From Eledone cirrhosa (taxonomy: Eukaryota): DNA of 64,000 bases. Numbering within the stretch: the stretch's first letter is position 1; the number at the start of each line of letters is the position of its first letter. Below, piece after piece: positions 4,051 to 28,300 of this stretch. The stretch lies in assembly GCA_964016885.1 (NCBI GenBank), contig OZ024740.1, positions 314,960,001 to 315,024,000 on the forward strand. The letters are read 5' to 3'. The position numbers and the translations under genes are program-made. A model generated the notes under the pieces. That model made no database searches and was not told where the DNA came from. It worked only from the letters and a program-made list of their open reading frames with translations.

Positions 4051-7000
4051 GTTCTTTGAGTCTCAGTCATTGATGTTAGTTAACTGGAAAGTTTGTTGCA
4101 ATGAATATCAAGCCACTACCTGCAACCTCAGCTATTCAGGACGTATCGGAGGATTCTTGCTGTTCCCAGCAAGCATGCCTTTTGAAGTGTTCCAAAAAGC
4201 GGGGCAGGGCCAATTTTCTTTAACCATCCCTGGAAACTTTTTGAGATAGTACCTAGTGCGCCTATGACAATCGGGACCACTTTGACTTCATGGCAGTTCC
4301 AAATCCTTTTTACCTCCCACTTTAAGTCCTGGTATCGGTTAATTTTCTCCCTCTCCTTCTCTTGCACTTTCGTGTCGAATGGTCAGGCCACATCCACAAT
4401 CAGGCACGATCTTTTTTCCTTGTCCAAAACCACCAGGTCAGGTCTATTTTGTTCCAGTTTCTTGTCCGTCTGTATCCTAAAATTTCACAGCACCTTCACC
4501 TGATCGTTTTCTATCACCGACTCTGGCTTATGCTCATACCACTTCTCAGAATGTGGTAAATTGTTTACTTTGCATAGGTGCCAGTGGATCACCCTGCCCA
4601 TCACATCATGTCTCCAGCCTTTATAGTGAGTCTGGGCTAGGTGTTTACACTCGGATACAATGTGAGCCACAGTCTCCTCTCTCTCTCCACAGATCCTACA
4701 CAGTGGGCTAGCCTCCTCCTTGTAAATATGGTGTTTCAGCCACTTCGTTTTGAGGGCCTGCTCTTGCGCAGCCATTAGCATTCCTTCTGTAGCCTTTTTA
4801 AGGTCTCCTCTTTTCAACCAGTTCCATGTCTGTGGATCTCTAAATTCAGTTTTCTCAAAGAGGTACTATGAAGGGATTTTTCATGAAGGTTGCTCTTTCT
4901 CCTTGTTGTTATTTCCTCCTTGGACATCCCCTGGTCTATTTTCCTCTCCTTCAGTACAATTCTGAGCATTGGCTCCCTACTATCAGTCACGTATTTGTGT
5001 AGGGTGTTTTTCTCCATCTGAACACAGTCCTCTATGCTGATAAGGCCTCTTCCACCTTCAGATCTCCTTAAGTAGAGTCTATCGACATCACTCCTCTTAT
5101 GGAACATGTTGTAGATAGTCAATTTTTGTTCTTGACGTCATCAGCCTCCAGAACACCTAAATATTTGTATCCTTCTTCAGTATCAATTTCCTTTATCATC
5201 TCACCTGTTGGTACCTGGATTCCGTTGCTTCTGCTCAATTTACCCCTCTTCATCACAAGGACTCCACACTTACTAATACAAAATTCCATACATATATCAT
5301 TGCTGAAAATCCGGACAGTGTCAACAAGCACATCCGACTCCTTCTCACTCTTCCCGAAGAGCTTAAGATCGTCCATGAAGAGGAGGTGATTGATGGTAAG
5401 CTCTCCCTTTCCCAACTTGTATCCTGCTCTCACTTTTCGCAGTATAATGGTCAGGGGCATCAGGGCAAGGACAAACAACAGAGGGGACAAACTATCTCCC
5501 TGAAAGATACCTCTCTTGATCTTCACGCCTCCCAAGGATTCTCCGCCTGATGTTAACTCTGTTTTCCAGGACTTCATACTTTTGCTCAACAACTGTCTGA
5601 TGTTATCTGCCACCCTGAAGATCTCTAGGCAAGAATGAGGTACCATGTCGAATGCCTTTTTGTAGTCTATCCATCCCATGGCAAGACCAGTGTGTCTCCT
5701 CTTGCAATTCCTCATTACCATATTATCAATAAGTAACTGGTCCTTTGTACGACGGGACTTCTTTCGGCACCCTTTCTGTTCGTCCGGTAACAAGTTGTTT
5801 ATGTGGAGGTGATGATAGATTTCCTCAGACACAATGCTTGTTAACAGTTTCCACATTACGGACAGACATGTGATAGGTCTATAGTTGGTAACATCATTAC
5901 CCTTGATTCGGTCTTTCATTACCAGAACTGTGGTACCTTTTGTCAACCACTCTGGTACCTCACCTGACATCAAGCAGTCATTGAACATGGTTGTCAGTTT
6001 CGGGTGGAGGGATGTTATATTTTTAATCCAATACCCCTGCACACCATCTGGGCCTGGTGATTTCCAGTTGGTTAGTTTTCTAGCCTGCCCCTTAAGAGTT
6101 TCAACTGTGATACTCAAATCAGTTTGTTGGTGTGCCTGTTCACTAATCCCCTTTTGTACTGTCTCAATCCACACTGCCTGATCATTATGTTTAACATCCT
6201 GCTCCCATATTCCTCTCTAGAATGTTTTAGTTTGTTCCGCCTCAGGGATCAAGTCGTTGCCTCTTTCTTTCCCTTCAAGCTGTCCAAACAACATCTTCTG
6301 GTTGTTGTCAAACATGCGGTTCTGTCTATACTGACTGACTCTGCTCTCGTATCTCCTAATCTTTGCGCTCGTTGCTACAATGCGTTGCTTCAGTTCCTCT
6401 ATGATAATATTTAGCTTTTTCCTCCTAGTTTTGTACTTTATTTCCAGTCTATTTTTAGTGTCTATGTTTTGTAGTGTCCCATTCAGTAGGGACTCAAGCT
6501 TTCCAATGTCATTTCTCATTTCCCTGATTTGACAATTCAGTCGTTTCTTCCACCAAGGTTCTGATCTTTCTTGTTTGTTGTTTCCTCTCGCTTTTATGCC
6601 AAGTCATTTCCTCACCGCATTTGTTGTTGCTTTGAGGATAATTTTGCACTGGTGAAGGTTCCTCGCCTCAAGGTATGGGATGACTTTGTTTACCTTAGCT
6701 GTTGTTTCTTTTAACTTTTTCCTGTCTACAAATCTTAGGTTCATAGGTTTCCCACTATCATTGTTCATTTCATCTACCACTAAGTTTAGGATATCAACCA
6801 AATCTTGTCCTAGCCCGTCAGCATTCATTTCATCAATGGTCATATCTTTGTTCCAAGTATTATTTATTTCAGCATTCAGATCATTGTCTGCTTCGGATGC
6901 TTCCTCCGTTCTCTCAACCTCTTCACCTTCATCTCCCACTGGCTCGTTTGCTTGCCACTCTCCATTTCCAATCTAATCTCTCTGCTGAGTTCCTCCAGTT

Positions 7001-8059: not shown

Positions 8060-11000
8060 TCCAAAATCATGGAGTGTGAGGCGGGAGTGAAGTGGCAAAC
8101 GGTCTGCCACAAAAAAGAAAAAAGAAAAAAACCCCCTTAGATTCACCCTCCAAAAGCGAAGGTATAAAAAGAGGGGTAAAGGCAGCAAGGAAACTTGCAG
8201 CAACACCACCACCATCACCACCACAAACACCAACAACGCAAACACAAGACACACACACCAAACAGCAACAAGAAGAAAACAGCAACAAAATCACCCCTCC
8301 CCCCCAAAAAGTACACAGCCATAAACATGGCAAAAAAAGAACTCATACAATATATAAAGCAGCACACAGACATCACAGAAAAAAACTACTACACCCCACC
8401 AACACCAAGAACTCTCCCGACAAACATAAGCATCATCGAAATCTCAATAGAACAGTACAAACCTTTAAAACAAAAATTCCCCAACGCAGTTAGAGACTTC
8501 AGAGGGTCAGTTACCAAGAGGATATACACTGACATCCTCTTGGAAACACCCATGACCAGCGAAAGGGACGGTTCTACTGTCCCTTCACCACACGAACAAG
8601 GTAAGTGACCCTTTCTCACTTGCCCCGTTTCTCATCCAACATGGCTGTACTCAGAATAGGCAGTATAAATGCACGTGGCCTGGGGTCATCTTGGAAGCAG
8701 GGTCACCTGCTCAATGACTTCAGGTCACTAAACATAGATGTGGTGGCTATCAGTGAAACCAGAATCTCCGAAGCACAAGCCTTCGCACCGATTTTCGGCG
8801 GCTACGATGTATACGCATCTCCCAGCCGCCCAGGATAGGGGGGAGGGGTTGCCGTCCTTTTTCGGAGAGGCTTGGATCTCGCGATACGGGCCATCTTCCT
8901 AGACCCAGAAGGTAAGTCGGTGGTGCTGGACGTGACCGGCAGCGAAGGCAATGCTTTCAGGCTAGTAGCCGTCTACGCCCCAACAGGGGCAGGACGGCCA
9001 GATTTCTTCAGACGTCTAGAGACCTTTCTTGGAACGTCCCGCTCTTTAGTGTTAGTGGGCGACTGGAACGGTATCTTGGATGCACGCTGGGATCGTGTGG
9101 GGCTAGTGGATAGGGGAGGAGGGTGAAGAGACTCACCAACCTGCTCAGACGTTTTGAACTGTCTGGCAGGTATCGACTGGATCACCCGAATGTGCCAATG
9201 TGGACATGGACAAACCGCATCGGGTCATCCAGATCGTATCTCGATAGGGTATTCTGCAGAGAACTAGATAAGGCTAGTATAAGTTGTCCACAATTTAAAA
9301 TAGTCGACTACACAGACCACAAATTTGTGATCTGTGATATCAACATAGACAGACTTCATAGACAAGGGCCTGGTTACTGGAAGCTAAACGCGTCTTTCCC
9401 GGCGCGCAAAGCCTACAGAGACCGGATTAGCGTATTAGTTAAGCGGGCGTTGACGGAGCGGTCGTTAATAACAGGTGGTGGTTCGCCCTGAAAAGGCCAA
9501 TTAAAGTAGAGTCGATTAGGTTTAGCAAAGGAGTAGTGATAGAGGAAAATAGAGTAGAGGGAGAGCTAGTCAGAAAGCTAGAAGAGGCGTTTAGGACAGG
9601 CATCGCAACCGACGTGCTTGCGGCGAGATTGGCACTCGACCAATTCTTCAACGCAAAACACGAAGGCTGCGTTGTCAAAGCTAGAGCGCGTGCTCTAAAA
9701 CACGAGGGGACAAAAGCCGTCCAATGGGCCCGGGTGGCAGAGGCGCGACGTAGCAACAAAGCCACAATTCGGTCTTTGTCTGACCAAAACGGGTGCGTGA
9801 TGCTCGAACCCGAGCGGATGTGTGAAGCTTTTCAGCAGCACTTTGCTGAACTGTTCTGGAGCGGCGGCGGCCCGGATCGGGGCATGGACTTCAGTGCATA
9901 CCTCGATGGACTGCCTCGGCTCTCGACGACCGCAGTACAGTGTTGCGAAAAGCCAATAACAGCCGGTGAAATACGGGAAGCGATGGCTAACTGCACAAGG
10001 GGTAAATCGCCAGGTTTAGATGGTCTGCCCTACGAGCTTTATTTTGTTCGGTGACCTCTTGGCAGACGTCTACTGCAACTGGCAGCAGAACGGGAGCATT
10101 CCCAGTTTTGTGAGCCGGGGAGCAGTGGTGCTGCTGAGAAAAGACCCGAACAAGGGGGATGTTATCGATAATTTCAGGCCCATAACCCTGCTAAATGCAG
10201 AGTTCAAGATTTTGGCCAAGGTGTTAGCAACGAGGTTGGCGCTTGTCGTCAAGGGTCTGGTAGGAGAGGCGCAGACATGCGCCATTTGGACAGATCCATA
10301 CACGACAACCTCCACCTAATACGATACGTCATAGAGAGGGTGGTTAAGGAACCTGGTAATGGTGGGGCCTTGATCAACTTGGATCAATCCAAAGCATTCG
10401 ATAAGATCGACCATCGGTACCTGGCGGCAGCCCTCGAGGCAGCCGGTTTCGGACCTGTTTTCAGGGGTTGGATCGCAGTAATGTACAGCGACATCTGCTC
10501 AGTTGTGAGGGTGAACGGTCACCTATCGCAGCCGTTCAGCATCATGCGCTCAGTCCGCCAGGGTTGTCCCCTCTCGTCCCTCTTGTACGTATTGGCTCTC
10601 GAGCCGTTACTGCACAAACTGGGGTCGATGAGGGGCGTCCCACGCGAACTAGGATGCGGGAAATCCGAGTCGGCTTACGCTGACGACGTTACCGTGGTGG
10701 TGTCGAGCACCAGAAACGTCCAGATGCTCGGCACCGCTCTCAAGGAATACGAAGCGGTGACAGGAGCAAAGATAAACCAGGAAAAGTCGGTGGGCTTGCA
10801 GCTCGGCACCTGGAGAGGCAAGTCCATGCCGTCCGACAGCGTCGTGGGGCGTTGGACGGACGAACCGGTTAAATTGCTCGGGATCTGGTTCGGACCGGAC
10901 CTCCAGATGGAGAAAAACTGGAACGAGGTGACGAGCAGGGTGGCCTCCCTCACCCAGAAATGGGCTGAGCGGAAGCTGTCCCTGAAAGGCCGGGCGGAGG

Positions 11001-12349
11001 TGGCGAATGCGAACATCGCATCCGTCATCTGCTACCGCCTCACCGTCGTCCCTTGCTCCAGCCCAACTCTCACCAAAATGGAGCGCCTCCTCTTCCGCTT
11101 TTTGTGGAAGGGACGCGCTCCCATGGTCAGACGATCCATCTGCTGTCAACACCCGTTCCGTGGAGGACTGGGCATGCCATGGCTGATGATGCCCAAACAT
11201 GCGCTGAGGCTGCGACATCTCTGGTGCTTCCTTGCTGGTGAACGGGTGTGGTCGCCGTTCGCCAGGCACGTTTTCCCACAGCTCGTCTCCTTGACGGAGC
11301 TGCAGTCCTGGGTCAGAAAAAGACCGAGGGATAGCGCTTGGAAACTGGAATGTCTCCAGGCGCTCACTGCCCTCTGCCAGCTGGGCACCAGTATCGGTGG
11401 AACATCCACCTCGGCGTTTTATAGAGGACTAGTGGAGGGGAAGAGCGACGACATTCTCGGAGAGATCCTGGGCGTCGAAGAAGATCAGCTGTTTGCTCTC
11501 TTCCGGAGAACTTTCAGCCCGGGGCCTATGGATAACTTCCAAAAATCCCTGGCCTGGCAGTGCTACCGGGGAGCGCTGCCGGTTGGAGATAAGCTCTACA
11601 GGCATAGAAGTGCCGTCAGCCGAGCCTGTCCGAGATGCGCGCAGAGCGACGAAACCGTTGTGCACGCACTCGTTCAGTGCCCGAGCATTGCTGACTTGTG
11701 GAGCTATGTCGAACAGTTGCTGTCGCGTGTGGGACTGATCCGGTTGTCGACTGAGTCCATTGTGCAGATGGTCTCGCCGTCTTCCTTGGAGGAGGAAGGG
11801 CAGGCGGTTTTCATCTGCCCGGTGGCCATGGCGAAAGAGATTGTGTGGTGGACAAGGTTGAAAGTGTTAAAGACAGACACTTTCCTCTTCGGCGAATCCC
11901 TAATTAACTTTTTTAAGTTTCACTTGAAGAGGAAAATCAGGGTGGAGAGGCAAGTGCTGCTTTCTAGCAAGTTTGTTGAAAAGTGGGTGAATGTAGCGAG
12001 AATGGTCCGAGTGAACGATACCGCTCTGAATATACGTCTGTAGCTTGAGAGATGGAAAAATTGAGAGAGGGCGCTTGCCCTGGTGGTCAGGGTGGCCGTG
12101 GTCTTTTGTGTGGTTTTCGCCACGAGTAACCCTCGGAGGTTTCCCCCCTATTGAGGAATTTTTCATTGTTTCAATTTTCATTTTTATTGTTTATATATAT
12201 ATATATGTTTCTATGTCCTTTTTTTTCTTTTCTTATATAAATAATAAAAATATTTACACGCACAAAACCCACATCGTACCGTCCTGTACCGTCCTGTGCC
12301 GTCTGTAATGTTTTTCTTGATGTCAGCCCTTGTGGCCAATAAAGAAATC
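8060..12349 (+). mobile_element. Tx1/L1-clade LINE, 5'-truncated and disrupted (copy 2)
   Basis: ORF1 C-terminal half to 8608; ORF2 from ATG 8641 to 12043 with APE (INARGL, SET, GDWN, YLDR, TDH), RT (QGCPLS, YADD) and CPRC..HALVQC knuckle; TAG at 8836 plus frameshifts; (TTA)n tail 12350-12386. Confidence 0.92.
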
Positions 12350-12386: not shown

Positions 12387-15300
12387 CAGTTGCATTTATC
12401 TTGCTTTATGTTCATACGAGTTATCACCAAGTCACAACCAGTGACCTCAATAGACAACAAGGTCCGCCATGTTCAAGAAAGAACATACATATTCACACAT
12501 GCATCTTTAGTGTTTAGACTTGTGATGTACTTATATTGACAGAATCTTCCTTAGTATATGGGCAGTTCCCATTAGTACTATCTTTTGTATTTCTCCTATA
12601 CGCGGGTTTCCTGGGATTTGCGATAAGTAGTCATTAGACCCCTTAGGTATCATTCCCAGAGCGCCTACAACCACTGGTATTGTTTTAGATCTCAATTTCC
12701 ACATTTTTCCAATTTCTATCTCCAGGTCCTTATACTTGCTCAATTTTTCAAATGTTTTTATAGATACATTCTTGTCTATTGGAACAGACATATCAATTAG
12801 CAGGCATACCCTCTTTTGAAAGTCCTTCAATATTATATCAGGTCTGTTTGCATCTATTTTTCGGTCTGTTTGGATGCTAAAGTTCCACAAGATTGAGATG
12901 TGATCTTTTTCAAGTATGGGAGGTGGTTGATGCTCCCACCAATTCTTTTGATGGGGCAGGTCAAAATGCTTACACATTATCCAATGTATGTATTGTGCAG
13001 ATCTGTCATGCCTGTTTAGGTATTCGGTTGGAGCTATAGGACTGCACATTGAAATTATATGGTCAATGGTCTCTGGTTGTTTTTTGCATACACGGCATAA
13101 TGGGCTGCACCCATTTTTTATTATGTTGGCTTGGTAATTTTTTGTTGGCAGACACTGATCTTGTGCCGATATAATCAGTCCTTCAGTCTCTGATTTCAGT
13201 CCAGAGGATGCCAACCACTGATGGGTTAAAGTTTTGTCAACATCAGGATTGTTAGCTCGCTCTGGATATTTTCCATACAGAGGCTTTTCTTGCCATTTCT
13301 TAGCCAGTTTCTGTAGCAGTTCTTTCTTTGCAGTTACTTTTACCTGCTTTGCTTTTTCTGTGTTTTCCATTTCAGCAGTAAATGGGACTTCTGAAATTTG
13401 TAGTCCATTACTGTATCTTTGTGCATCTTTTGTAATGGAATATGATCTTTTGATGCTTTCGTGTTTCAAAACGAGTTTGATCATCCAATCATGTGATTCC
13501 CTTAGATATGTAGATAATCCAATTGTTGCAGTTTTCAACGCAATGTCTAACTGGATTAACCCACGTCCTCCTTCTTTCCTAGGGAGATATATTCTATCTA
13601 TATCTGCCTTAGGGTGATGCATTCTGTGCATGGTTAAGAATTTTCGAATTTTTGTATCGAGCCTACGGATCTCTGTGCTTGACCAGTTGATGACATTGTA
13701 ACTGTAGGTTACTACTGGTATGGCAAGCGTGTTTATGGCATCGATCCTATTCCTTGCATTCAATTCCGTTCTTAAGATTGCTCTTACTCTGCGGTAACAT
13801 TCCTTCCTTATCCTTTCCCTCATTGTCGAGTGCTTGATTCCGTCTCCTTCACAAACACCTAGATATTTGTAGGTTTTTTCTTGATCAAGTTCTCTTATCA
13901 CGTTCCCCCGATCAAGATTAATGTCTGAACTCTTCAGCAGCTTTCCTCTGGTGAACGTTGCTTTGGCGCATTTATCTAGTCCAAACTCCATTTTAATGTC
14001 ATCACTGAACTGCTTCACAGTGGATAATAGCCCTTGCAATTGTTCATCATTTTTTGCAAATAGTTTCAGGTCATCCATGTAGAACAGGTGATTAATGGTT
14101 TTGTCATAGATTCTATATCCATGTTTTGTTTCATTGAGCATTTTACTTAATGGTATAAGTGCGATGCAGAATAAAAGCGGTGATAAAGAGTCACCCTGAA
14201 AAATTCCACAATTAATATTAACTTCTCCAGCTTCCAGTGATTTTGTTTCACTATTCAAAAGGAGTGTCGTTTTCCATGTCTTCATACTGAATGACAAAAA
14301 CCTCCTGACAACGGGGGATATTTTGAAAATCTCTAAACATTTTTCAATCCAACTGTGTGGCAAACTATCGAATGCTTTTTTATAATCTATCCAAGCAATC
14401 GATAGATTTTTGTGTCTATTATGACAATCTTCCAGTATCATTTTGTTAACCAGAAGCTGATCCTTACAGCCATATGAGCCTCGTTTACACCCTTTCTGCT
14501 CAATGGGAAATAGGTCATTTGTTATCAGGTGGTCATATGTGTATTCAGTTAGGACTGATGTTAAAATTTTATACATTGTGGTCAAGCAAGTTATCGGTCT
14601 GTAATTTTTGGGATTGTTTGTCTCATCATTCTTCGGAAGCAGGAATGTAATGCCGTTAACTAGCCATGAAGGTATCTTTTCTGGCTCCTTAACTATTTCA
14701 TTGTAAAGTTGGGCTAACAGCTCATGAAACTCTGTGAAGGCATTTATCCAAAAGTTTTGTATTTTGTCTTTTCCTGGGGATTTCCATTTGCTGGTTTTTC
14801 TTAGAGCCAAGCGCAACTGTTCAACTGTTATATTTTCCCATGTTTGCTCCTCAAGGTGAGCTGTATCTTTCATTTGTCTGTCTATCCATGGGGCATGTAT
14901 GTTATGAACTTTTTCTTCGGCCCAGATCTTTTCCCAGAATTCTTGCACTTCCTCCTTGGGTGGTATTGATTTAGCAGTTATTGTTGACTTACCAATTTTT
15001 CTGTAGAAGTTTCTTTGGTTGTTTTTGAACATATTATTGTCCTTATAGAATCTAGATCGTTTTTCAAAGCGCCTTATACGAGCAGCTTTGGCCGACACTT
15101 TTTGCTTGATTATTTCTATCAGCATGTCTATGTCACATGTTGATTTTATACTGTACTTTTTTTTCAATTTTCTAAGTTTAGTTTGTTTAACATGTTCACC
15201 TACTTTATAGTTTGTTAAAATTTCTATGTCAGATCGGAGAAGGTTTATTTGGCGATTGATGTTCTCTTGCCAAGTAGGTTTCTTGTGGGAATTCCTTTGT

Positions 15301-16335
15301 TTTTTCATCTTCACTCCACATAAGTGAGTGGTGACTTTAGCCGATGCATAATAGAGATGATTTAAATCAGTAATGTTTAGTTTGTTTGTGATGATAATGT
15401 TTTTGAGAATTATGTTAGTCTTGTGTATTATCTTTTGGTTCTGTTTGGAGTTCTGGATCTTAGGGAGGGTGTCTCGTTGCCCCATGTCAGATTCTTTCAT
15501 TTTCATCCATTCGATCATAATTTCATCCTTCAAGTTGGCAAGTTCATTCTCATTCATTTCTTTATCATTTACGATCTCATTATTTTCATTTGGAGTTTCA
15601 TCCTGAGCATGCACTTTTTCGATCCTTTCTTTAATTTGTTCTGTTGCCAGTGATTCCGCCCCAACCCTGGGATTCGAAGTGTTACAGTTTACCTCGTTTT
15701 CACTGACAGATGTTTCATTTTCCCTTCGCTGACTTTGTGCTAATAGTTTGATCTGATCAATTTCTATATCAGTTAGTAACTTTTTTCTTACAATATTTCT
15801 TCGTATATTGGCTAGTTTGTTACTGTCAATATAGCCTCTTTTTTCGGGATGTTTCTTTTTCCAGTTGATATATGTCTGTTCTGTATTCGATGTATTTGAT
15901 GGGTAGTACATGGCAGTGTAGAAAGCCTCAAGGATTTCTTTATTATCTTCCCTTGACCATTTTTCTCTCTTTTTCTTTGGATTTCTTGGTGGTGAGCATG
16001 GAGGGCCAACAGTAGGAGTATTCCGGTTATGGGAGGTCTCCAGCTCCGAAGTGATGGGAAGGTTTGAACCATTAGCTGATTTTTCGACCCCAGTCTGGTT
16101 CCTCTCTGAGGGACGCGGCCCTTTTTTACCCGGGTGACGGCCGATCCGGTATGAGATTTTATCATTAGACATTTACTTTATTTTGTCGCGTTTTATCCTT
16201 ATCCGCCAAGGGGTAATCATTTCGTGTTACCACTTCTAGAACGAGTGTCAACCAAGACTAGAGGGGTCGTTCTCCCCTAGAGACACGGCTATTCCCCGCC
16301 GGCCGCCATCCCGGTATTTCTTGGTCACGGGGTTT
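12387..16335 (-). mobile_element. R4/Dong-like RT-RLE retrotransposon, apparently intact (family 2)
   Basis: Single long ORF, ~160-nt GC-rich 5' UTR, 144-nt 3' UTR, ends in (TAA)n shared with the tail of the opposing Tx1-like copy. Confidence 0.93.
12531..16172 (-). CDS. Reverse transcriptase plus restriction-like endonuclease polyprotein, 1213 aa
   Basis: Uninterrupted ORF; KWSREDNKEILEAFY N-terminus; KSPGKD, NYRPITCL, IDYKKAFDS, GIFQGDSLSP, YMDD; CRVCKKQPETIDHIISMC, RHD, RPDII..LLIDMSVP..KLSKY (PD-(D/E)xK type). Confidence 0.95.
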   Translation of the reverse strand: MSNDKISYRIGRHPGKKGPRPSERNQTGVEKSANGSNLPITSELETSHNRNTPTVGPPCSPPRNPKKKREKWSREDNKEILEAFYTAMYYPSNTSNTEQTYINWKKKHPEKRGYIDSNKLANIRRNIVRKKLLTDIEIDQIKLLAQSQRRENETSVSENEVNCNTSNPRVGAESLATEQIKERIEKVHAQDETPNENNEIVNDKEMNENELANLKDEIMIEWMKMKESDMGQRDTLPKIQNSKQNQKIIHKTNIILKNIIITNKLNITDLNHLYYASAKVTTHLCGVKMKKQRNSHKKPTWQENINRQINLLRSDIEILTNYKVGEHVKQTKLRKLKKKYSIKSTCDIDMLIEIIKQKVSAKAARIRRFEKRSRFYKDNNMFKNNQRNFYRKIGKSTITAKSIPPKEEVQEFWEKIWAEEKVHNIHAPWIDRQMKDTAHLEEQTWENITVEQLRLALRKTSKWKSPGKDKIQNFWINAFTEFHELLAQLYNEIVKEPEKIPSWLVNGITFLLPKNDETNNPKNYRPITCLTTMYKILTSVLTEYTYDHLITNDLFPIEQKGCKRGSYGCKDQLLVNKMILEDCHNRHKNLSIAWIDYKKAFDSLPHSWIEKCLEIFKISPVVRRFLSFSMKTWKTTLLLNSETKSLEAGEVNINCGIFQGDSLSPLLFCIALIPLSKMLNETKHGYRIYDKTINHLFYMDDLKLFAKNDEQLQGLLSTVKQFSDDIKMEFGLDKCAKATFTRGKLLKSSDINLDRGNVIRELDQEKTYKYLGVCEGDGIKHSTMRERIRKECYRRVRAILRTELNARNRIDAINTLAIPVVTYSYNVINWSSTEIRRLDTKIRKFLTMHRMHHPKADIDRIYLPRKEGGRGLIQLDIALKTATIGLSTYLRESHDWMIKLVLKHESIKRSYSITKDAQRYSNGLQISEVPFTAEMENTEKAKQVKVTAKKELLQKLAKKWQEKPLYGKYPERANNPDVDKTLTHQWLASSGLKSETEGLIISAQDQCLPTKNYQANIIKNGCSPLCRVCKKQPETIDHIISMCSPIAPTEYLNRHDRSAQYIHWIMCKHFDLPHQKNWWEHQPPPILEKDHISILWNFSIQTDRKIDANRPDIILKDFQKRVCLLIDMSVPIDKNVSIKTFEKLSKYKDLEIEIGKMWKLRSKTIPVVVGALGMIPKGSNDYLSQIPGNPRIGEIQKIVLMGTAHILRKILSI

Positions 16336-16411
16336 TCTTTTTGTTGTTTTTTTTTAAATTGTTATTATCATGAGTGGTTCCTTAATGTGAGCATTGCGTG
16401 GCTTAAGAATG

Positions 16412-16449
16412 AAATTATTAATAATTGTCTCCACTCCAGGCACAAGGCC

Positions 16450-16451
<2 letters not shown>
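16412..16451 (-). mobile_element. SINE family A tail fragment
   Basis: Reverse complement TGGCCTTGTGCCTGGAGTGGAGACAATTATT. Confidence 0.55.
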
Positions 16452-16517
<66 letters not shown>

Positions 16518-16518
16518 A

Positions 16519-19382
16519 TTAAGCAAAAGTTGACAGGGGGATCATCAACAACAGATGGTGGGGGGCTCTCAAAATAGAGATTAGAGTAACTTCGATAGAG
16601 TTCAGCAAAGAACTAGCGTTAGAGAAAAATAGAAAGGAGGGGGAGCTGGTAGAGAAGTTAGACGAGGCTATTTGTAGTGGCATTGCAACTGACGTGCTAG
16701 CGGCGAGAATGGCATTAGACCATTTCTTAAATGCGAAACACGAAGGTTGCATTGTCAGAGCTAAGGCGCGTGCGCTGAAAAACGAGGGAACCAAAGCTGT
16801 TCGATGGGTCCGCGTGGCGGAGGCGCAGCGTGGTAATAAAACCACAATTCGGTCTTTGGCGAACTGAGACGGACAAGAGATAAGCGATTCCAAGCGGATC
16901 TGTGAGGCCTTTCACCAGACTTTGCTCGGTTGTTCGGGAAGAGTGGCGAGTCAGAGAGAGTAGCGGATTTCAGTCCCTACCTTGACGACTTGTCGCGCAT
17001 CTCGAAGGTCGACGCTGAGCGCTGCGAAAGGCCAATTACTTCAGCCGAAATTCAGGACACCCTTGTCGGCTGCATGAGGCACAAATCACCCGGTTTGGAT
17101 GGCCTGCCCTACGAGCTTTATGTAAATATGCCAGACTTATTCTCCGATCTCCTCGAAGCACTCTACTGCAACTGGCAGCAGAATGGGAGTATTCCCAGTT
17201 CTGTGAGCAGGGGAGTGGTGACGCTGATAAGGAAAGACGAGAACAAGAGGGATACATTAGACAACTTCAGGCCCATAACTCTGCTCAACACAGAGTTTAA
17301 GATTTTGGCCAAGGTGTTTGCAAAGAGATTGGCGCTTGTCGTCGAGGATTTGGTTGGGGAGGCGCAAACTTGTGCAATCCCAGCCAGGTCCATACACGAC
17401 AATCTCCACCTCATGCGATACATCATAGAGAGGGTTGGGTGTAAACCCGGCTTCGTTTGGGCACTGATCAATTTAGATCAATCGAAAGCATTCGATAGGG
17501 TCGACCATCGGTATCTGGAGTTTGTCCTCAATGCAGCTGGCTTCGGCCCTGTCTTCAGAAGCTGGATCGCTGCAATGCACAGCGGCACACGCTCGGTGGT
17601 CAAGGTTAATGGCCACCTCTCGAAAACATTTCGGCTCTCCCAAGGGTGCCCTCTCTCTGCCCTTCTGTACGTGTTGACTCTTGAGCCTTTACTGCGGAAG
17701 CTGGAGCTGTTGCAGGGCATCCCGCTCGAACCGGGACGTGGAAAGGCGGTGTCGGCATATGCGGACGACATCACCGTGATGGTGTCGATCACCTCAGAAA
17801 TCGAGGTGGTCGGCACCTTATTGAAGGAATATGAAAGGTTGACAGGAGCCAAACTTAACCCGGAAAAGTCGGTGGACTTGCAGCTCGGAACCTGGAGAGG
17901 CAAGCCCATGTCGTCCAACAGGTCGTGGGGCGCTGGATGGACGTACCGGTAAAGTTGCTCGGGGTTTGGTTCGGACCAGACCTCCAGGTGGAAAAGAATT
18001 TGGACGAGGTAACGAGCAGAGTAGCTAGGCTCACCCCAAAATAGGCTGGGAGGAAGCTATCACTGAAAGGTCGCGCGGAGGTGGCGAATGCGTACATCGC
18101 GTCCGTTATCTACTACCGCCTGGCCGTCTTGCTTTGCCCCCGTCCGCGCCTCGTCAAGTTGGAACGGCTCCTCTTCAAATTCTTGTGGAGGGGACAATTT
18201 CCGTTGCAATTTCCATCTGCTGCCAGCACCCTCTACGCGGAGGGCTGGGCATGCCGTGGCTAATGATGCACAGACATGCGTTGAGGCTGCGATATCTCCA
18301 GATATTCTGCCTCAACGGTGAACAGGTGTGGTCGCCGTTTATCAGACGGGCCTTTCCGCAGCTCATTTCTTTGACTGAGCTGCAGTCCTGGATCAAGAAG
18401 AGACCGAGACTGGGTGACTGGCATCTGGAATGTTGCCAGGCACTCACTGCCCTCTACCAAGCGGGCAATGCGATCAGTGGAACCTCCACTCTCGACTTCT
18501 ATAGAGATTAGTGGTGGGCAAGTGCGATGACGCACTCGGAGAAGCTTTGGGCCTCTACGAAGTCGAACTGACTAGTCTGTACCGGAAGACTTTTGAGCCG
18601 GGGACGATGGACAATTTCCAGAAATCCCTCGCTTGGCAGTGCTACCGGGGGCACTGCCCGTTCGGGATAAACTCTAAAGGCACGGAAGTGCTGTCAGACG
18701 GACCTGCCCAAGATGCGCACAGAACGACGAAACCGTTCTACACGCACTTGTCCAATGTCCATGCATTACTGACTTGTGGAGTTATGTCGAACAGCTACTG
18801 TCGCGTGTAGAACGAATCCGGCTATCGGCTGATTCCATAGTGAAGATCGACCTACCGCCTTCCTTAGGCCAGGAAGAGCAGGACATTTTCCTCTGTCTGG
18901 TGGCAGTTACGAAAGAAGTTATATGGTGGACCAGGTTAAAAGGACTGAAGACAGACACTTTTCTCTTCGGCCAATCCCTCATCAACTTATTCAAGTTTCA
19001 CCTGGAAAGGAAGGTGAGGGTGGAGAGAGAAGTGCTGCCCCCCAGTACATTTGCTAAAAGGTGGGTGAATGTGGCGAGAATGGCTCGTGTGAATGGGCCT
19101 ACTCTGACCATGCGCCTATAGGCTAGCTAACTTGAGGAGAGGGGTGCTCTCCCTGGGTGCCCTAGAAGCGCAGGGTGGTTCAGGATTGGTGGAGTACCCG
19201 AATCACCACCTATCGTGGAATTTATTTTGTTATATTTATGCATAGTTTATTTTATATTTTTATATCTTCATTGTTAAATTAGTCTTGCCATTGTGCACTT
19301 TTACTCGACCTTATTGTAAACCCCCACTGTCCCTGTCTTTGTATTGTCCCCTACATGTCGGCCCTTGTGGCTAATAAATGAA

Positions 19383-19383
<1 letters not shown>
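16519..19383 (+). mobile_element. Tx1/L1-clade LINE, 5'-truncated diverged subfamily (copy 3)
   Basis: Starts directly after (TTA)n 16457-16515; RT (KSPGLDG, FRPITLLN, YADD) and C-terminal pieces to 19121 with stops and frameshifts; (TTA)n tail 19384-19463. Confidence 0.92.
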
Positions 19384-19463
<80 letters not shown>

Positions 19464-19677
19464 GGCGACCTACGTAGTAAAGCGTATCATCGTGAGCTCC
19501 GCAAAGGTTTGTTATTTTCAGTTGTTTAAAATTGCCATTTATGGAAAATTTTTTATTGTTAACTGTATATAAGTATACATACATTGTTATCTGAAAAGGA
19601 CATCCAAAAAGATTGGGGCCTTGAGCCCAAAATTTAAACTTTTATAATTATCAAACAAAAATTTTTCTTTGAAAATC

Positions 19678-21596
19678 ATGGATGACTCAGAGTCTCTCCT
19701 TCCTCACAAACTAACACCTCACACCGACACCACTATTGTAAATATTACTACGTTTGCCAACACTAAAAATATAAGCAGTAGCAATATTTTAAATTTGTCT
19801 CAGGCAGACATTCATTTCCCGCCATTACCAATGACTGCAGGTGTTAAAGCCGCCACCTCCACCACCACCACCGCGACAACAGAAACAAAAGAAAAAAATA
19901 AATTAACTCGTGATATCGAAATGAATTCAACCAAAATTAACTCTTCCACACCGAACACCACTGACGCCACCACCACCACAACTGAAACTAAAATTAACAA
20001 TAACAAAAATAACGATAACAACAACAACAATGAAATTAAGAAAACCACCCTGAGTTTTGTCAAAGTAGCAAAACAATGCGAAGCATTTCAGGTAACTCAG
20101 GAGGAATTAGAAGAAGCCCCCCAAATGGTAAAGAAAGATGGGTACAGGGTCAGCCCCCCCCACACCTAATAAAATGGAGCATCGGCGCCTATGCACCGTG
20201 TCTTATAGAACAATTAACATAAAATCGCGCCGAGTGGAACGGGCATCCGAGTCCCAAATCCAAAAAGTTTTGGGACATGTGTGGGCAAAAAGAACCCACA
20301 TCAGACGTGGGCAGAAATATGGAACCGTGGATGTGTTCTTTGAAACACCACAGGAGGCTAGAGAACACTCCATGACTCCATTAAGAAGTGACGACTTCAC
20401 ACTCGTCCCAAGCTATTGTGGCCAGAGACTCGTAAAGATCAGGGTGACCCACGTTCCACCGGCCATCGAAATTCCCTGGCTAATAGCTGCCGTCCTCGCC
20501 GGCATCGAAGCCAACACCAAGATAATCGAAATAGCGAAAGAAAAGCAGGAGAACTGGTCCGAATCTGGAATGGAGCTCCTGATCCAAGCGGACCAAAAAA
20601 GCATTGAGGAGATCCCAGAGGTAATAGACCTCACTGACGGCAGCCAGCTCACCGTAATCGTCGAGGGCAGAAGGCCTAGGTGTGTCGTTTGTGGTGAAGG
20701 AACCCACCTAAGGGCTTTCTGCTCTCAGGCTAAAAGGTTGAGGCCACTCTCTTACCCACCCTAGTGACTCAACCATCAACACCACCAGCAGCAGAGATGG
20801 CAGCAACAACTGTAGCAGCAACAACAGAAGCAACTGTAACAGCAACAACCCCAGCAACAGTAACAAAACCAACACCACCACCACCCAACGCGCCAGAACT
20901 AGCACCAACACCTATACCATCCACCACGCCACAACCAAAACCAACGCCTGTGGAGCATTTTCCACTCCCCGGCCTATCACAACTGGAGGCAGTGTGTGAC
21001 GACGAGGAGTGGGAAACGGTATCAGGAAAAAAGAAAAAAAGAAACCAGAAAAGAAAAAATTCTCTTCCTTCCCCCTCCAAAAACAAAATACAGAGGGAAA
21101 CAAATAAATTATCAAACAAAAAAGTTAGGACATATATGCCACCATCCACACCAGCATCACCAACCCCATCACCACAAACACCAACACCATCACCATCATT
21201 AACCCCAACACCATCATCACCAGCACCACAAAAGTCACCAAAAAGCGAAACAGAAACAAACCCACAACAAACGCAAACAAAACAAAACAACCAAAACGAT
21301 ACACACTACACAGCATTAAATTTGAACAACAACCAATTATTACACTACATGCAACAACACCAGCATCACAGAAAAAGACTACACAACAATCCAAAAGTTC
21401 ACACCACCTCCACACATACAAATCACTCGCATCACACAGAAAACGTACACGACACTAAAATAAAAATTCCCCAAAGACATCGGAGACTTCCGACAAACAC
21501 TCTCCAGGAGGATTTATAAGGACATCCTTCCGGAGGAGGCCACAAGCAGTGAAAAGGATGGACAAACCATCCTTCCTCTACGAGAAGTAAGGTAAG
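19678..21596 (+). pseudogene. ORF1 (RRM-like region, CCHC zinc knuckle, Pro/Thr-rich linker), frameshifted
   Basis: KYGTVDVFFETPQEA RRM-like segment; CVVCGEGTHLRAFC = C-x2-C-x4-H-x4-C; frame breaks near 20160, 20733 and 21365 plus an in-frame TAA; C-terminus homologous to the 8195-8608 frame. Confidence 0.8.
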
Positions 21597-21629
21597 TGGT
21601 CTTTCCCATCTTTTCCACTCCATTTCAAC

Positions 21630-24600
21630 ATGACCTCACTCAGAATAGGCAGCATAAACGCGCGTGGCTTGGGGTCGTCATGGAAGCAGGGCCACCTGCT
21701 CAAAGACCTCACGTCACTAAACATAGACGTAGTGACCATCAGCGAGACCAGAATCTCCAGAATCTTCGGCGGCTACGATGTGTACGCATCTCCCAGCCGT
21801 CCGGGATCGGGGGGATGAGTTGCTGTGCTTTTTCGGAGAGGTTTGGATCTCGCCATACGGGCCATCTTCCTGGACCCAGAGGGTAAGCTGGTGGTGCTGG
21901 ACGTGACCAGCGGAGACGGGCAAGCTTTCAGGCTAGTGGCCGTCTATGCCCCGACAGGAGCAGGGCGGCCTGATTTCTTCCGGCGTCTGGAGACCTTTCT
22001 TGGAACGTCCCGCTCTTTAGTGTTAGTGGGCGACTGGAACGGGATCTTAGATGCACGCTGGGACTGTGTGGGATTAGCGGATAGGGGTGGAGGGTGCAAG
22101 AGCCTCACCAACCTGCTCAGGCGTTTTGAACTGTCTGACAGGTACCGAATGGATTTCCCGAATGTGCCAATGTGGACTTGGACAAACCGCATAGGGTCAT
22201 CCAGATCATATCTAGATAGAGTATTTTGTAGGGAAATAGATAGGTCTAGCATAGGCTGTCCACAATTCAAGATAGTAAGCTACACGGACCACAAATTCGT
22301 GACCTGTGTGCTTGACTTAGATAGGCTTCATAGACGAGGACCCGGCTACTGGAAGCTAAACGCGTCCTTACCAGCGCGCAAGGCCTACAGAGACCGGATT
22401 AGCGAACTAGTTAAGCGGGCGTTGACGGGGGCCATCGTCAACAACAAGTGGTGGTTTGCTCTGAAAAGAGCGATTAGAATAGAATCGATTAGGTTTAGTA
22501 AGGCTTTAGCAATAGAGAAAAATAGAGCAGAGGGAGAACTAGTTAGAAAATTAGACGAGGCGCTTAGCAAAGGCATTGCGACCGACGTGCTTGCGGCGAA
22601 ATTGGCCCTTGACCAATTCTTCAATGCAAAGCACGAAGGCTGCGTTGTCAGAGCTAGGGTGCGTGCTCTCAGACACGAGGGGACGAAAGCCGTTCAATGG
22701 GCCCGAGTGGCGGAGGCGCGTCGTGGCAACAAAGCCACGATCCGGTCTTTGGTGGACCACGACGGGCGCATGCTACTCGATCCCGGGCAAATGTGTGAAG
22801 CTTTTCAGCGACACTTCGCTCAGCTGTTCGGGGGCAGCGGGGGGCCGGGTAGAGGGATGGACTTTAGTGTCTACCTCGACGGACTGCCGCGGCTCTCGGC
22901 CACTGAGGCGAAGTGTTGCGAAAAGCCGATAACAGCCGCTGAAGTAAGGGAGGCAATGACTGGCTGCACAAGGGGTAAATCGCCTGGTTTGGATGGTCTG
23001 CCCTATGAACTTTACGTACAGATGCCAGACTTGTTCGGAGGCCTCTTGGCGGACGTCTACTGCAACTGGCAACAGAACGGGAGAATTCCCAGTTCTGTGA
23101 GCCGAGGAGCGGTGGCACTGCTGAGAAAGGATCCGAACAAGGGGGATAACATAGAAAATTTCCGGCCCATAACTCTGCTGAACACAGAGTTTAAGATTTT
23201 GGCCAAGGTGCTAGCAAAGAGGTTGGCGCTTGTCGTTGGTGGTCTGGTGGGAGAGGCGCAGACATGCGCCATTCCCGACAGATCCATCCACGACAACCTC
23301 CACCTCATGCGATACATCGTAGAGAGGGTAGCTAGGGAACCTGGCACGGGTGGGTCCTTGATCAATTTAGATCAGTCGAAAGCTTTCGATAGGGTCGACC
23401 ATCGTTACCTAGCGGCAGTCCTGAGGGCGGCTGGCTTTGGGCCCGTCTTCAGAGGCTGGATCGCTGCCATGCACAGCGACATCTGCTCTGTGGTGAGAGT
23501 GAACGGTCACCTGTCGGAACCGTTCAACATCATGCGCTCGGTCCGCCAAGGATGTCCCCTCTCGTCCCTCTTGTACGTATTGACTCTCGAGCCATTACTG
23601 CACAAACTGGAGACGTTGAGGGGAGTCCCGCGCGAACTAGGATGCGGAAGATCCGTGTCAGCATATGCGGACGATGTCACCGTAGTGGTGTCGAACGCCA
23701 AACACATCGAGGCGATCGGCACTACACTAAGAGAATACGAAGCGGTGACAGGAGCAATGATCAACCAGGAAAAGTCAGTGGGCCTGCAGCTCGGCACCTG
23801 GAGAGGCAGGTCCATGCCGTCCAACAGCGTCGTCGGGCGCTGGACGGACGGACCGGTTAAATTGCTAGGGGTCTGGTTCGGTCCGGACCTCCAGACGGAC
23901 AAAAACTGGGACGAGGTGACGAGCAGGGTGGCTTCTCTCACCCAGAAATGGCCGGAGAGGAAGCTATCCCTGAAAGGTCGAGCGGAGGTGGCTAACGCGT
24001 ACATCGCGTCTGTCATCTGCTACCGCCTAACCGTCGTACCTTGTCCTAAGCCTCGCCTGACTGCGCTGGAGCGTTTGCTCTTTCGCTTTTTGTGGAAGGG
24101 ACGTGCTCCGATGGTCAGGCGGTCCATCTGTTGTCAACACCCGCTACGTGGAGGGCTGGGCATGCCGTGGCTGATGATGCGCAGGCACGCGCTCAGGCTA
24201 CGACATCTCCACCTCTTCCTCGACGGTGATCAGGTGTGGTCGCCGTTTGCTAGACGCGTTTTTCCCCAGCTCGTTTCCTTGACGGAGCTGCAGTCCTGGG
24301 TCAAGCGAAGACCGAGAGGGAGCGCCTGGAGACTGGAATGTCTTCAGGCGCTCACAGCCCTCGACCAATCGGGCAATGTGATCGGTGGAAACTCCACCTC
24401 GGCGTTCTATAGAGGATTAGTGGAGGGGAAGTGCGACGACGTACTTGGGGAAACTCTAGGCGTCGACGAAAATCAACTAGCCAATCTCTTCGGAAGAACT
24501 TTCGGGCCAGGGCCTATGGACAACTTCCAGAAATCTCTGGCCTGGCAGTGCTACCGAGGAGCTTTGCCAGTTCGGGATAAACTCTACAGGCATGGAGGTG

Positions 24601-25031
24601 CCGTCAGCCGGGCATGTCCGAGATGCGCGCAGGGCGACGAAACCGTCCTGCACGCACTCGTCCAGTGTCCGAAAATTGCTGACTTGTGGGTTTATGTCGA
24701 ACACCTGCTGTCGCGTTTAGGACGGATCCAGCTATCATCTGAGTCTATCGTGAGGATTGCCCCGCCCTCCTCCTTTAGCCGGGAAGGGCAGGCAGTTTTT
24801 ATCTGTCTGGTGGCCATGGCGAAAGAGATAGTATGGTGGACACGTTTGAAAGGGCTGAAGACGAGCACTTACCTCTTCGGTGATGCTCTGATTGACTTTT
24901 TCAAATTTCATTTGAAAAGGAAAATCAGAGTAGAGAAGGAAGTGCTCTCTTCCCAGCATTTTGTTGAAAGATGGGTGAGAGAAGCAAGAATGGCCCGAGT
25001 GAATGGGCCGACTCTGAGTATATATCTGTAA
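21630..25031 (+). CDS. ORF2 APE endonuclease-reverse transcriptase; one in-frame TGA at 21816-21818, otherwise open
   Basis: 21630..21818 and 21825..25031 share a frame; INARGL, ISETR, GDWN, YLDR, TDH; QGCPLS, YADD; CPRCAQGDETVLHALVQC. Confidence 0.9.
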
Positions 25032-25291
25032 ACTAAAGGTGGAAAACTGGGAGAGGGCACTTGCCTTGGTGGTCAGGGTCATTGTGGCTTTTTACTGGGC
25101 TTTCTCCACAAATGTCCCTCCGAAGTCTCCCCCCTATTGGGGAATTTTTCATTGTTATTTTCATTGTTATTTTTGTTACATCCTCTGTTTTTGTTTTTTT
25201 ACACGCAGAAATGCCCATTTGTACCGTCCTGCATTGTCCTGCACTGTCCTTAATGTCTACTTTATGTAAACCCTTGTGGTTAATAAAGAAA

Positions 25292-25350
<59 letters not shown>

Positions 25351-28300
25351 GGCGACCTACGTAGTAAAGCGTATCATCGTGAGCTCCGCAAAGGTTTGTT
25401 ATTTTCAGTTGTTTAAAATTGCCATTTATGGAAAATTTTTATTGTTAACTGTATATAAGTATACATACATTGTTATCTGAAAAGGACATCCAAAAAGATT
25501 GGGGCCTTGAGCCCAAAATTTAAACTTTTATAATTATCAAACAAAAATTTTTCTTTGAAAATCATGGATGACTCAGAGTCTCTCCTTCCTCACAAACTAA
25601 CACCTCACACCGACACCACTATTGTAAATATTACTACGTTTGCCAACACTAAAAATATAAGCAGTAGCAATATTTTAAATTTGTCTCAGGCAGACATTCA
25701 TTTCCCGCCATTACCAATGACTGCAGGTGTTAAAGCCGCCACCTCCACCACTACCACCGCGACAACAGAAACAAAAGAAAAAAATAAATTAACTCGTGAT
25801 ATCGAAATGAATTCAACCAAAATTAACTCTTCCACACCGAACACCACTGACGCCACCACCACCACAACTGAAACTAAAATTAACAATAACAAAAATAACG
25901 ATAACAACAACAACAATGAAATTAAGAAAACCACCCTGAGTTTTGTCAAAGTAGCAAAACAATGCGAAGCATTTCAGGTAACTCAGGAGGAATTAGAAGA
26001 AGCCCCCCAAATGGTAAAGAAAGATGGGTACAGGGTCAGCCCCCCCCACACCTAATAAAATGGAGCATCGGCGCCTATGCACCGTGTCTTATAGAACAAT
26101 TAACATAAAATCGCGCCGAGTGGAACGGGCATCCGAGTCCCAAATCCAAAAAGTTTTGGGACATGTGTGGGCAAAAAGAACCCACATCAGACTGTGGGCA
26201 GAAATATGGAACCGTGGATGTGTTCTTTGAAACACCACAGGAGGCTAGAGAACACTCCATGACTCCATTAAGAAGTGACGACTTCACACTCGTCCCAAGC
26301 TATTGTGGCCAGAGACTCGTAAAGATCAGGGTGACCCACGTTCCACCGGCCATCGAAATTCCCTGGCTAATAGCTGCCGTCCTCGCCGGCATCGAAGCCA
26401 ACACCAAGATAATCGAAATAGCGAAAGAAAAGCAGGAGAACTGGTCCGAATCTGGAATGGAGCTCCTGATCCAAGCGGACCAAAAAAGCATTGAGAAGAT
26501 CCCAGAGGTAATAGACCTCACTGACGGCAGCCAGCTCACCGTAATCGTCGAGGGCAGAAGGCCTAGGTGTGTCGTTTGTGGTGAAGGAACCCACCTAAGG
26601 GCTTTCTGCTCTCAGGCTAAAAGGTTGAGGCCACTCTCTTACCCACCCTAGTGACTCAACCATCAACACCACCAGCAGCAGAGATGGCAGCAACAACTGT
26701 AGCAGCAACAACAGAAGCAACTGTAACAGCAACAACCCCAGCAACAGTAACAAAACCAACACCACCACCACCCAACGCGCCAGAACTAGCACCAACACCT
26801 ACACCATCCACCACGCCACAACCAAAACCAACGCCTGTGGAGCATTTTCCACTCCCCGGCCTATCACAACTGGAGGCAGTGTGTGACGACGAGGAGTGGG
26901 AAACGGTATCAGGAAAAAAGAAAAAAAGAAACCAGAAAAGAAAAAATTCTCTTCCTTCCCCCTCCAAAAACAAAATACAGAGGGAAACAAATAAATTATC
27001 AAACAAAAAAGTTAGGACATATATGCCACCATCCACACCAGCATCACCAACCCCATCACCACAAACACCAACACCATCACCATCATTAACCCCAACACCA
27101 TCATCACCAGCACCACAAAAGTCACCAAAAAGCGAAACAGAAACAAACCCACAACAAACGCAAACAAAACAAAACAACCAAAACGATACACACTACACAG
27201 CATTAAATTTGAACAACAACCAATTATTACACTACATGCAACAACACCAGCATCACAGAAAAAGACTACACAACAATCCAAAAGTTCACACCACCTCCAC
27301 ACATACAAATCACTCGCATCACACAGAAAACGTACACGACACTAAAATAAAAATTCCCCAAAGACATCGGAGACTTCCGACAAACACTCTCCAGGAGGAT
27401 TTATAAGGACATCCTTCCGGAGGAGGCCACAAGCAGTGAAAAGGATGGACAAACCATCCTTCCTCTACGAGAAGTAAGGTAAGTGGTCTTTCCCATCTTT
27501 TCCACTCCATTTCAACATGACCTCACTCAGAATAGGCAGCATAAACGCGCGTGGCTTGGGGTCGTCATGGAAGCAGGGCCACCTGCTCAAAGACCTCACG
27601 TCACTAAACATAGACGTAGTGACCATCAGCGAGACCAGAATCTCCAGAATCTTCGGCGGCTACGATGTGTACGCATCTCCCAGCCGTCCGGGATCGGGGG
27701 GATGAGTTGCTGTGCTTTTTCGGAGAGGTTTGGATCTCGCCATACGGGCCATCTTCCTGGACCCAGAGGGTAAGCTGGTGGTGCTGGACGTGACCAGCGG
27801 AGACGGGCAAGCTTTCAGGCTAGTGGCCGTCTATGCCCCGACAGGAGCAGGGCGGCCTGATTTCTTCCGGCGTCTGGAGACCTTTCTTGGAACGTCCCGC
27901 TCTTTAGTGTTAGTGGGCGACTGGAACGGGATCTTAGATGCACGCTGGGACTGTGTGGGATTAGCGGATAGGGGTGGAGGGTGCAAGAGCCTCACCAACC
28001 TGCTCAGGCGTTTTGAACTGTCTGACAGGTACCGAATGGATTTCCCGAATGTGCCAATGTGGACTTGGACAAACCGCATAGGGTCATCCAGATCATATCT
28101 AGATAGAGTATTTTGTAGGGAAATAGATAGGTCTAGCATAGGCTGTCCACAATTCAAGATAGTAAGCTACACGGACCACAAATTCGTGACCTGTGTGCTT
28201 GACTTAGATAGGCTTCATAGACGAGGACCCGGCTACTGGAAGCTAAACGCGTCCTTACCAGCGCGCAAGGCCTACAGAGACCGGATTAGCGAACTAGTTA

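Follow-up and report, generated by a model that had tools for sequence, protein, structure and literature searches.

A predicted pseudoknot in the leader of an R4/Dong retrotransposon of Eledone cirrhosa, with relatives in RTE elements and SINEs

What is the self-complementary stretch that precedes the open reading frame (ORF) of an R4/Dong retrotransposon in Eledone cirrhosa, and what might it do? In the window analyzed here (the whole stretch of 64,000 nucleotides), an initial annotation had drawn this motif (16238 to 16326, minus strand) as four helices, A to D, forming a nested double pseudoknot at the 5' end of an intact element, distinct from the hepatitis delta virus (HDV) fold, and had proposed either a new self-cleaving ribozyme or a translation-initiation structure. 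All four complementarities are present on the minus strand, namely, A (16326-16319 with 16257-16250), B (16286-16282 with 16249-16245), C (16280-16274 with 16264-16258 or 16266-16258), and D (16273-16267 with 16244-16238), and a descriptor that requires the strands to follow one another as A B C D C' A' B' D' finds 27 pairs in the window. The motif also ends where it was said to end, with D stopping 65 nt ahead of the AUG.

The element and the position of the motif

The single ORF (12531 to 16172, minus strand) has an intact reading frame of 1,213 aa in the window copy, starts with the AUG at 16172, and encodes a reverse transcriptase (RT) (RVT_1, E=2.4e-29) and a C-terminal restriction-like endonuclease, the best solved relatives of the protein being R2 proteins (E=3e-27). 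A CCHC finger and PD..D motifs are also visible in its translation. Tracts of (TAA)n flank the element on both sides (the target microsatellite at 16456 to 16508, minus strand, on the 5' side and a second one after the 3' untranslated region [UTR], at ca. 12386) and lie at most junctions of other copies as well. By this layout and target site, the element belongs to the R4/Dong type. Many copies of the window family have inserted into a (TAA)n tail that belongs either to a different Dong family or to the window family itself. The window copy itself sits between pieces of another LINE (RVT_1 plus zf-RVT), several copies of which are found at 10172 to 12043 and 16918 to 31000 (plus strand), and two decayed, 5'-truncated Dong-like elements of other families lie at 4134 to 6600 (minus strand) and 34175 to 36299 (plus strand), their long segments showing 37 to 43% identity.

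In order to locate the motif within the element, we compared copies across the genome. Among the 40 best copies, the shared sequence extends well upstream of 16326; as this query is biased toward copies with upstream sequence, the census of 5' ends used 21-mer anchors placed at 16326 and at the start of the ORF. Exact genome-wide matches numbered 1,111 at the ORF start, 1,181 at 16326, and 1,100 at 85 nt upstream of the motif, and these flat counts indicate that there is no step at or inside it. In two overlapping samples of 30 copies, both from one contig, not a single copy starts at G16326 (0/30 for either anchor). The first 30 of the 1,181 matches at 16326 all continue at least ca. 25 nt upstream, most of them for >900 nt, while 27 of the first 30 of the 1,111 ORF-start matches reach at least 164 nt past 16326, the rest comprising two that end downstream of it and one that is unresolved. 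A common start 0.9 to 1.2 kb upstream of G16326 was seen in 7 of 30 copies, and the leaders of the five full-length copies that were measured span 1,081 to 1,369 nt and contain 11 to 15 upstream AUGs each. The motif therefore lies in the middle of the Dong/R4 5' UTR rather than close to the 5' end of the element, since full-length copies begin ca. 1 kb upstream. Nor is the window copy intact as annotated, being 5' truncated at about 16450, so that the rest of the shared leader occupies 16327 to 16450 (minus strand).

The leader has further features of its own. Upstream of the motif, that of the window family (L002 to L060) is a patchwork with SINE-like 3' ends and with indels between subfamilies. 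In the young subfamily, a 15-codon upstream ORF in frame with the main ORF (16173 to 16220, minus strand) ends in a TAA that abuts the AUG; this stop is missing from the older-subfamily copy L149, the frame being open in older copies, and stop-restart from this upstream ORF could occur. The first 100 nt of the main ORF (16165 to 16060, minus strand) are conserved at the nucleotide level in L065, L066, L069, and L078, the proteins of the Dong families that share this start being only 32 to 58% identical, and might possibly form a third RNA structure.

A conserved fold in a published sequence domain

Judged by its sequence, the segment from 16277 to 16218 is a diverged member of a domain described as the conserved RTE 5'-UTR domain, or 3' half of the Ceph-SINE domain (Kojima 2018, PMC5786205). 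That domain occupies a mid-UTR position, is conserved among RTEs, RTE-derived SINEs, Ingi-3_AC, and R4-1_ADi, and has been retained in bipartite elements and in RTE-derived SINEs that arose independently; the available text gives no RNA structure for it (0 occurrences of "pseudoknot") and no tested function (PMC5786205). The window copy agrees with it in sequence domain, spacing, and mid-UTR position but is far diverged, with a shortened loop in hairpin F (see below), other pairs in E and D, and the additional possible pairings A and B. We built a covariance model from 12 rows, none of them from the window family; they include SINE copies that, on inspection by eye, are identical to the Sepioth-SINE1 stretch as published (PMC5786205). 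This model retrieved 16283 to 16206 as its only significant match in the 64 kb (E=4.9e-6; the next had E=1.6). The same model gave E=1e-8 for the older copy L149 and only E=0.11 for L065.

Relatives of this module were found in Dong elements (the window, L065, L066 twice, L069, and L243) and in RTE elements (L174, L177, and L179, all with remnants of an RTE-type ORF downstream of the module). Among 38 metagenome loci with related ORFs, L065, L066 (the same as L067), and L069 keep the leader together with the related stretch. Two tandem diverged modules, each with its own compensatory pairs, lie in the single Dong leader of L066 (206 to 358), and diverged modules with the window form of hairpin E occur in another Dong-type family (L243/L244) and at 1188 to 1269 of L180. 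A pattern search recovered the module at 19 loci of a tRNA SINE, in which it follows the tRNA head of full-length copies and helix D is intact (7/7 pairs) in 13 of 18 copies. It also recovered a short repeat of the E. cirrhosa genome with 24,196 exact motif matches; seven of 16 further module places were retrieved, and the other nine resemble variants of this family. The repeat is ca. 650 nt long (L099 to L128, e.g., L101), has helix D partly broken, and is likely a bipartite non-autonomous RTE. Contigs of two GTDB bacterial bins (L155 to L173) hold many copies of the animal tRNA SINE, so these bins are likely contaminated with host DNA; the covariance model gave 72 matches there, the best rows being the same SINE places. 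Neither a relative nor the motif was found in viral contigs.

Comparison of these homologues points to a fold that differs in part from the one first drawn. In the conserved module (16218 to 16277, minus strand, with spacing like that of the homologues), stem C (16277-16274 with 16266-16263) closes a 7-nt loop, the whole of which pairs downstream as helix D (16238 to 16273; 16273-16267 with 16244-16238). The linker holds hairpin E (16247 to 16258), with 3 bp (16258-16256 with 16249-16247) and a 6-nt loop, and D' is followed by hairpin F (16224 to 16235), which was found by RNAalifold. C and D are thus predicted to form an H-type pseudoknot with strong covariation, accompanied by two small hairpins that the initial annotation had overlooked. 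Classical H-type pseudoknots that carry a hairpin in loop 3 have this geometry, in which one loop base must stay unpaired.

Over 15 homologues from Dong, RTE, and SINE (related rows from ca. 11 independent families, some of them decayed copies, with coordinates set by a descriptor that requires D), 92.9% of the cells of the combined fold are paired, double-change cells number 47 against 13.7 ± 3.5 after shuffling (0/500), and pairs with double changes number 10 against 6.4 (2/500). The alignment omits the family of 24,196 matches, with its partly broken D; five SINE copies (L161, L163, L164, L169, and L170) from the family of two rows that were kept, four of which failed or scored low; and L243/L244 and the second L180 match, which were found later. 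Slid registers pair only 28 to 46% of the cells, and RNAalifold recovers D, E, and F unaided. Helix D stands out, with 95.2% of cells paired and double changes at six of its seven pairs, followed by stem C (91.7%, two of four pairs) and hairpin E (91.1%, two of three pairs). Hairpin F (3 bp) has no double changes in these 15 rows, so that its support is weaker than that of C, D, and E, and in the young subfamily its register moves, giving a 3-bp stem capped by a GNRA-type loop (16233-16224). A pairing of loop E with the 3' tail showed no covariation (460/500 shuffles).

Variation within the window family and in published consensus sequences agrees with helix D. Among 54 copies of the family (a sample partly selected by pattern), the pair 16271/16240 is A-U in 34, G-C in 17, and mixed in 3, and the outside run X5 has just three common variants within the motif, two of which are these. 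Among the rows inspected from the supplement of PMC5786205, D and D' are both covered by 14 non-avian LINE consensus sequences, every one of which keeps 7/7 pairs (by eye, with G.U allowed), and so do three SINEs, with many different letters across rows; one bird row and RTE-5_PSi keep six, and several bird RTEs cap hairpin E with a UUCG loop. The covariation check thus bears out the annotated claim of a real pseudoknotted RNA element other than the HDV fold, with C and D covarying. Its novelty is lower than was thought, the sequence domain being already published (PMC5786205), while fold and function are not. Searches of Rfam and of openly accessible papers turned up no description of the fold, and this well-supported predicted pseudoknot is apparently undescribed so far.

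Candidate roles of the module

From its position and distribution, we infer that the module may help internal translation initiation or ribosome tethering, to which we give a little less than an even chance. Translation initiation, one of the two roles first proposed, thus stays a candidate. What suggests it is the combination of a leader that is long and rich in AUGs, a module common to elements whose proteins are unrelated, and an apparently fixed spacing between a knot and the AUG. This last feature is a second predicted H-type pseudoknot, G (16188 to 16216, minus strand), which ends 15 nt before the AUG in the window and 13 to 15 nt before it in all three Dong families that have it, although its two double changes over four rows are not significant on their own (59/500 shuffles). 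L069 has neither G nor an in-frame AUG. The sharing of the module by elements with unrelated proteins would fit a host partner better than an element-encoded one, and the lack of a pile-up of 5' ends at or in the module also favors initiation.

According to the mechanism that we propose, the 4-bp stem C would stack on the 6- to 7-bp loop helix D, the first A of the loop probably crossing the groove, and conserved bases in the loops of hairpins E and F would be exposed to a host factor, probably either an initiation factor or the 40S subunit. The host ribosome would be recruited in this way for internal initiation at the single ORF, bypassing the 11 to 15 upstream AUGs, with pseudoknot G placing the AUG 13 to 15 nt downstream. 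In non-coding SINEs, the module could keep the RNA docked on ribosomes, close to freshly synthesized RT protein. Several observations stand against an initiation role. The distance from module to ORF varies from ca. 65 to 70 nt (the window and L065) through ca. 180 nt (L066) to >300 nt (L174), the module is intact in a tRNA SINE, which is non-coding and has no ORF to be started, it is not universal among Dong copies (L181 has none), and none of the Rfam IRES families matches. A wider proposal is more doubtful, namely, that the covarying module and the AUG-positioning pseudoknot represent a new class of compact cap-independent ribosome-entry RNA, swapped between RTE, R4/Dong, and Ingi elements and repeatedly taken up by SINEs as a tether (a counterpart of the Alu domain), with A and B as an on/off switch in this family.

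Binding of the element's own RT protein, for RNP assembly or the second-strand step, with SINEs mobilized in trans, would account for the retention of the module in bipartite elements and in RTE-derived SINEs of separate origin (PMC5786205) and for the intact helix D of most SINE copies, and the R2 protein does bind a 5' pseudoknot (PMC6765202). We nevertheless consider it unlikely, as the module is common to elements with RTE and Ingi (APE) and Dong (RLE) proteins and the non-autonomous RTE family of 24,196 matches has spread widely despite its partly broken D.

Just below it in our estimation comes an alternative that concerns the fold only and is compatible with translation initiation: the window family might fold as A+B+C+D, or switch between this form and the conserved C+D+E, thereby regulating the module. 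The gapless tiling noted in the initial annotation is real, in that, given the core, the upstream sequence tiles the 18-nt linker better than expected by chance (1/200 shuffles, and 4/200 in the older copy L149, for A, B, and the outer C pairs tested together). Older copies of the family retain A and B, and the nearest-neighbor energies (-6.4 plus -4.6 kcal/mol for A and B against -2.8 for E) favor the two over hairpin E, so the window RNA may fold as originally drawn. However, A and B use the same bases as E, which excludes both in full, and they show no covariation among the 54 copies of the family; the end pair of B is broken in six of these (a propagating subfamily) and in outside runs X9 and X5. 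Helix A alone is at chance level (p=0.13), and the nested minimum free energy of the 89 nt is no better than that of shuffles (z=0.08). Similar tiling is missing from 11 other homologues (6 to 36 of 40 shuffles), and no adjacent B exists in L243/L244, whose linker is almost the same and whose E does not differ. No consistent upstream partner for the linker emerged across 12 instances, the lowest values (p=0.047 by helix for L066a and p=0.033 by energy for L178) falling at different places. On geometric grounds, moreover, if the outer 3 bp of C formed alongside A and B, a single nucleotide would have to span an 8-bp helix. Of the four annotated helices, then, D and the inner 4 bp of C are conserved, while A and B, and with them the nested four-helix topology, are not; these two are at most a possible family-specific alternative pairing.

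Protection or routing of the RNA by the fold, as a 5'-3' exonuclease block or an export or localization signal with no part in initiation, seems improbable to us. Such a role, being independent of protein, would make the module transferable between clades and SINEs, and in R2 templates, a stable HDV fold protects the RNA much as a cap does (PMC13708176). Against this, an exonuclease block should yield copies starting just 5' of the module, and none do; L065 starts ca. 55 nt before stem C.

A new self-cleaving ribozyme, cutting before G16326 or inside the module, is very improbable. Such an activity would suit a compact pseudoknot with conserved unpaired bases, and the window family seems to lack an HDV-like ribozyme, no HDV or hammerhead core having been detected in 1.9 kb of its leader, whereas Bombyx Dong has an active one (PMC3774820). 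A search of Rfam returned chance matches only (E≤10 over 15500 to 17000 and E≤1 over seven loci), including no match to the twister, pistol, hatchet, or hammerhead models, and the hammerhead core is missing from the Dong leaders searched. An HDV descriptor (P3/L3 consensus plus the C of J4/2) found nothing in 16460 to 16100 or in the leaders of L002, L065, L066, and L069 and detected one instance in the RTE element L174; the module likewise lacks the five-helix HDV double pseudoknot (P1, P1.1, P2, P3, and P4). Cleavage before G16326 is not supported by the census, since no copy starts there and the counts are flat. Three RTE-type copies provide an internal control for this junction test, as they start right at a separate HDV-like fold that ends ca. 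75 nt upstream of the same module. Cleavage would furthermore remove the tRNA head that precedes the module in full-length SINEs. The HDV-like fold (L174 748 to 930, L179, and L180) has the G of P1 right after the flank, a long P2, P3/L3, and the C of J4/2; that of L174 is not reported by Rfam. Finally, a promoter or enhancer acting at the level of DNA, a speculation made in PMC5786205, would suit the highly conserved sequence of the purine-rich 3' part of the module but is hardly credible given the antiparallel compensatory changes across the pseudoknot, which indicate a single strand.

Significance and comparison with known systems

A covariation-backed fold touches on the question of how translation proceeds in single-ORF LINEs whose leaders are uncapped or full of AUGs and on why RTE-derived SINEs keep this one piece of the RTE 5' UTR, whose function was left open in PMC5786205. 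Opossum RTE-1 serves as a tool for gene insertion and does so with UTRs of its own that were tuned through screening (PMC13708176), and if it carries the module, the structure would explain which UTR bases matter. The analysis further eliminates a spurious ribozyme candidate.

HDV-like ribozymes of R2, R4/Dong, and RTE elements were reportedly described by Ruminski in 2011. Like these ribozymes (PMC3774820), the module is a pseudoknotted RNA in a non-LTR leader, and helix A opens with a G.U pair as theirs do; unlike them, it has no P1.1, P4, L3 consensus, or J4/2 C, does not lie at the 5' junction, and coexists with a true HDV-like fold in RTE copies. The pseudoknot in the R2 5' RNA that is bound by the R2 protein (PMC6765202) is likewise a conserved 5' structure of an RLE-type element, but its sequence is different, and the module is common to several clades and SINEs. 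HCV-type (type IV) IRESs have a pseudoknot a short fixed distance ahead of the AUG and, upstream of it, small hairpins with UUGG-type loops. We treat the resemblance to this arrangement as a lead only, and the module is much smaller, matches nothing in Rfam, and has a UUCG loop E in some bird RTEs. With no Rfam match (the sole measure of sequence likeness used) and in a different context, the module nevertheless shares its architecture with three-stemmed H-type pseudoknots that carry a hairpin in loop 3, such as preQ1-II and the coronavirus frameshift element: a stem, a fully paired loop, and a hairpin within loop 3.
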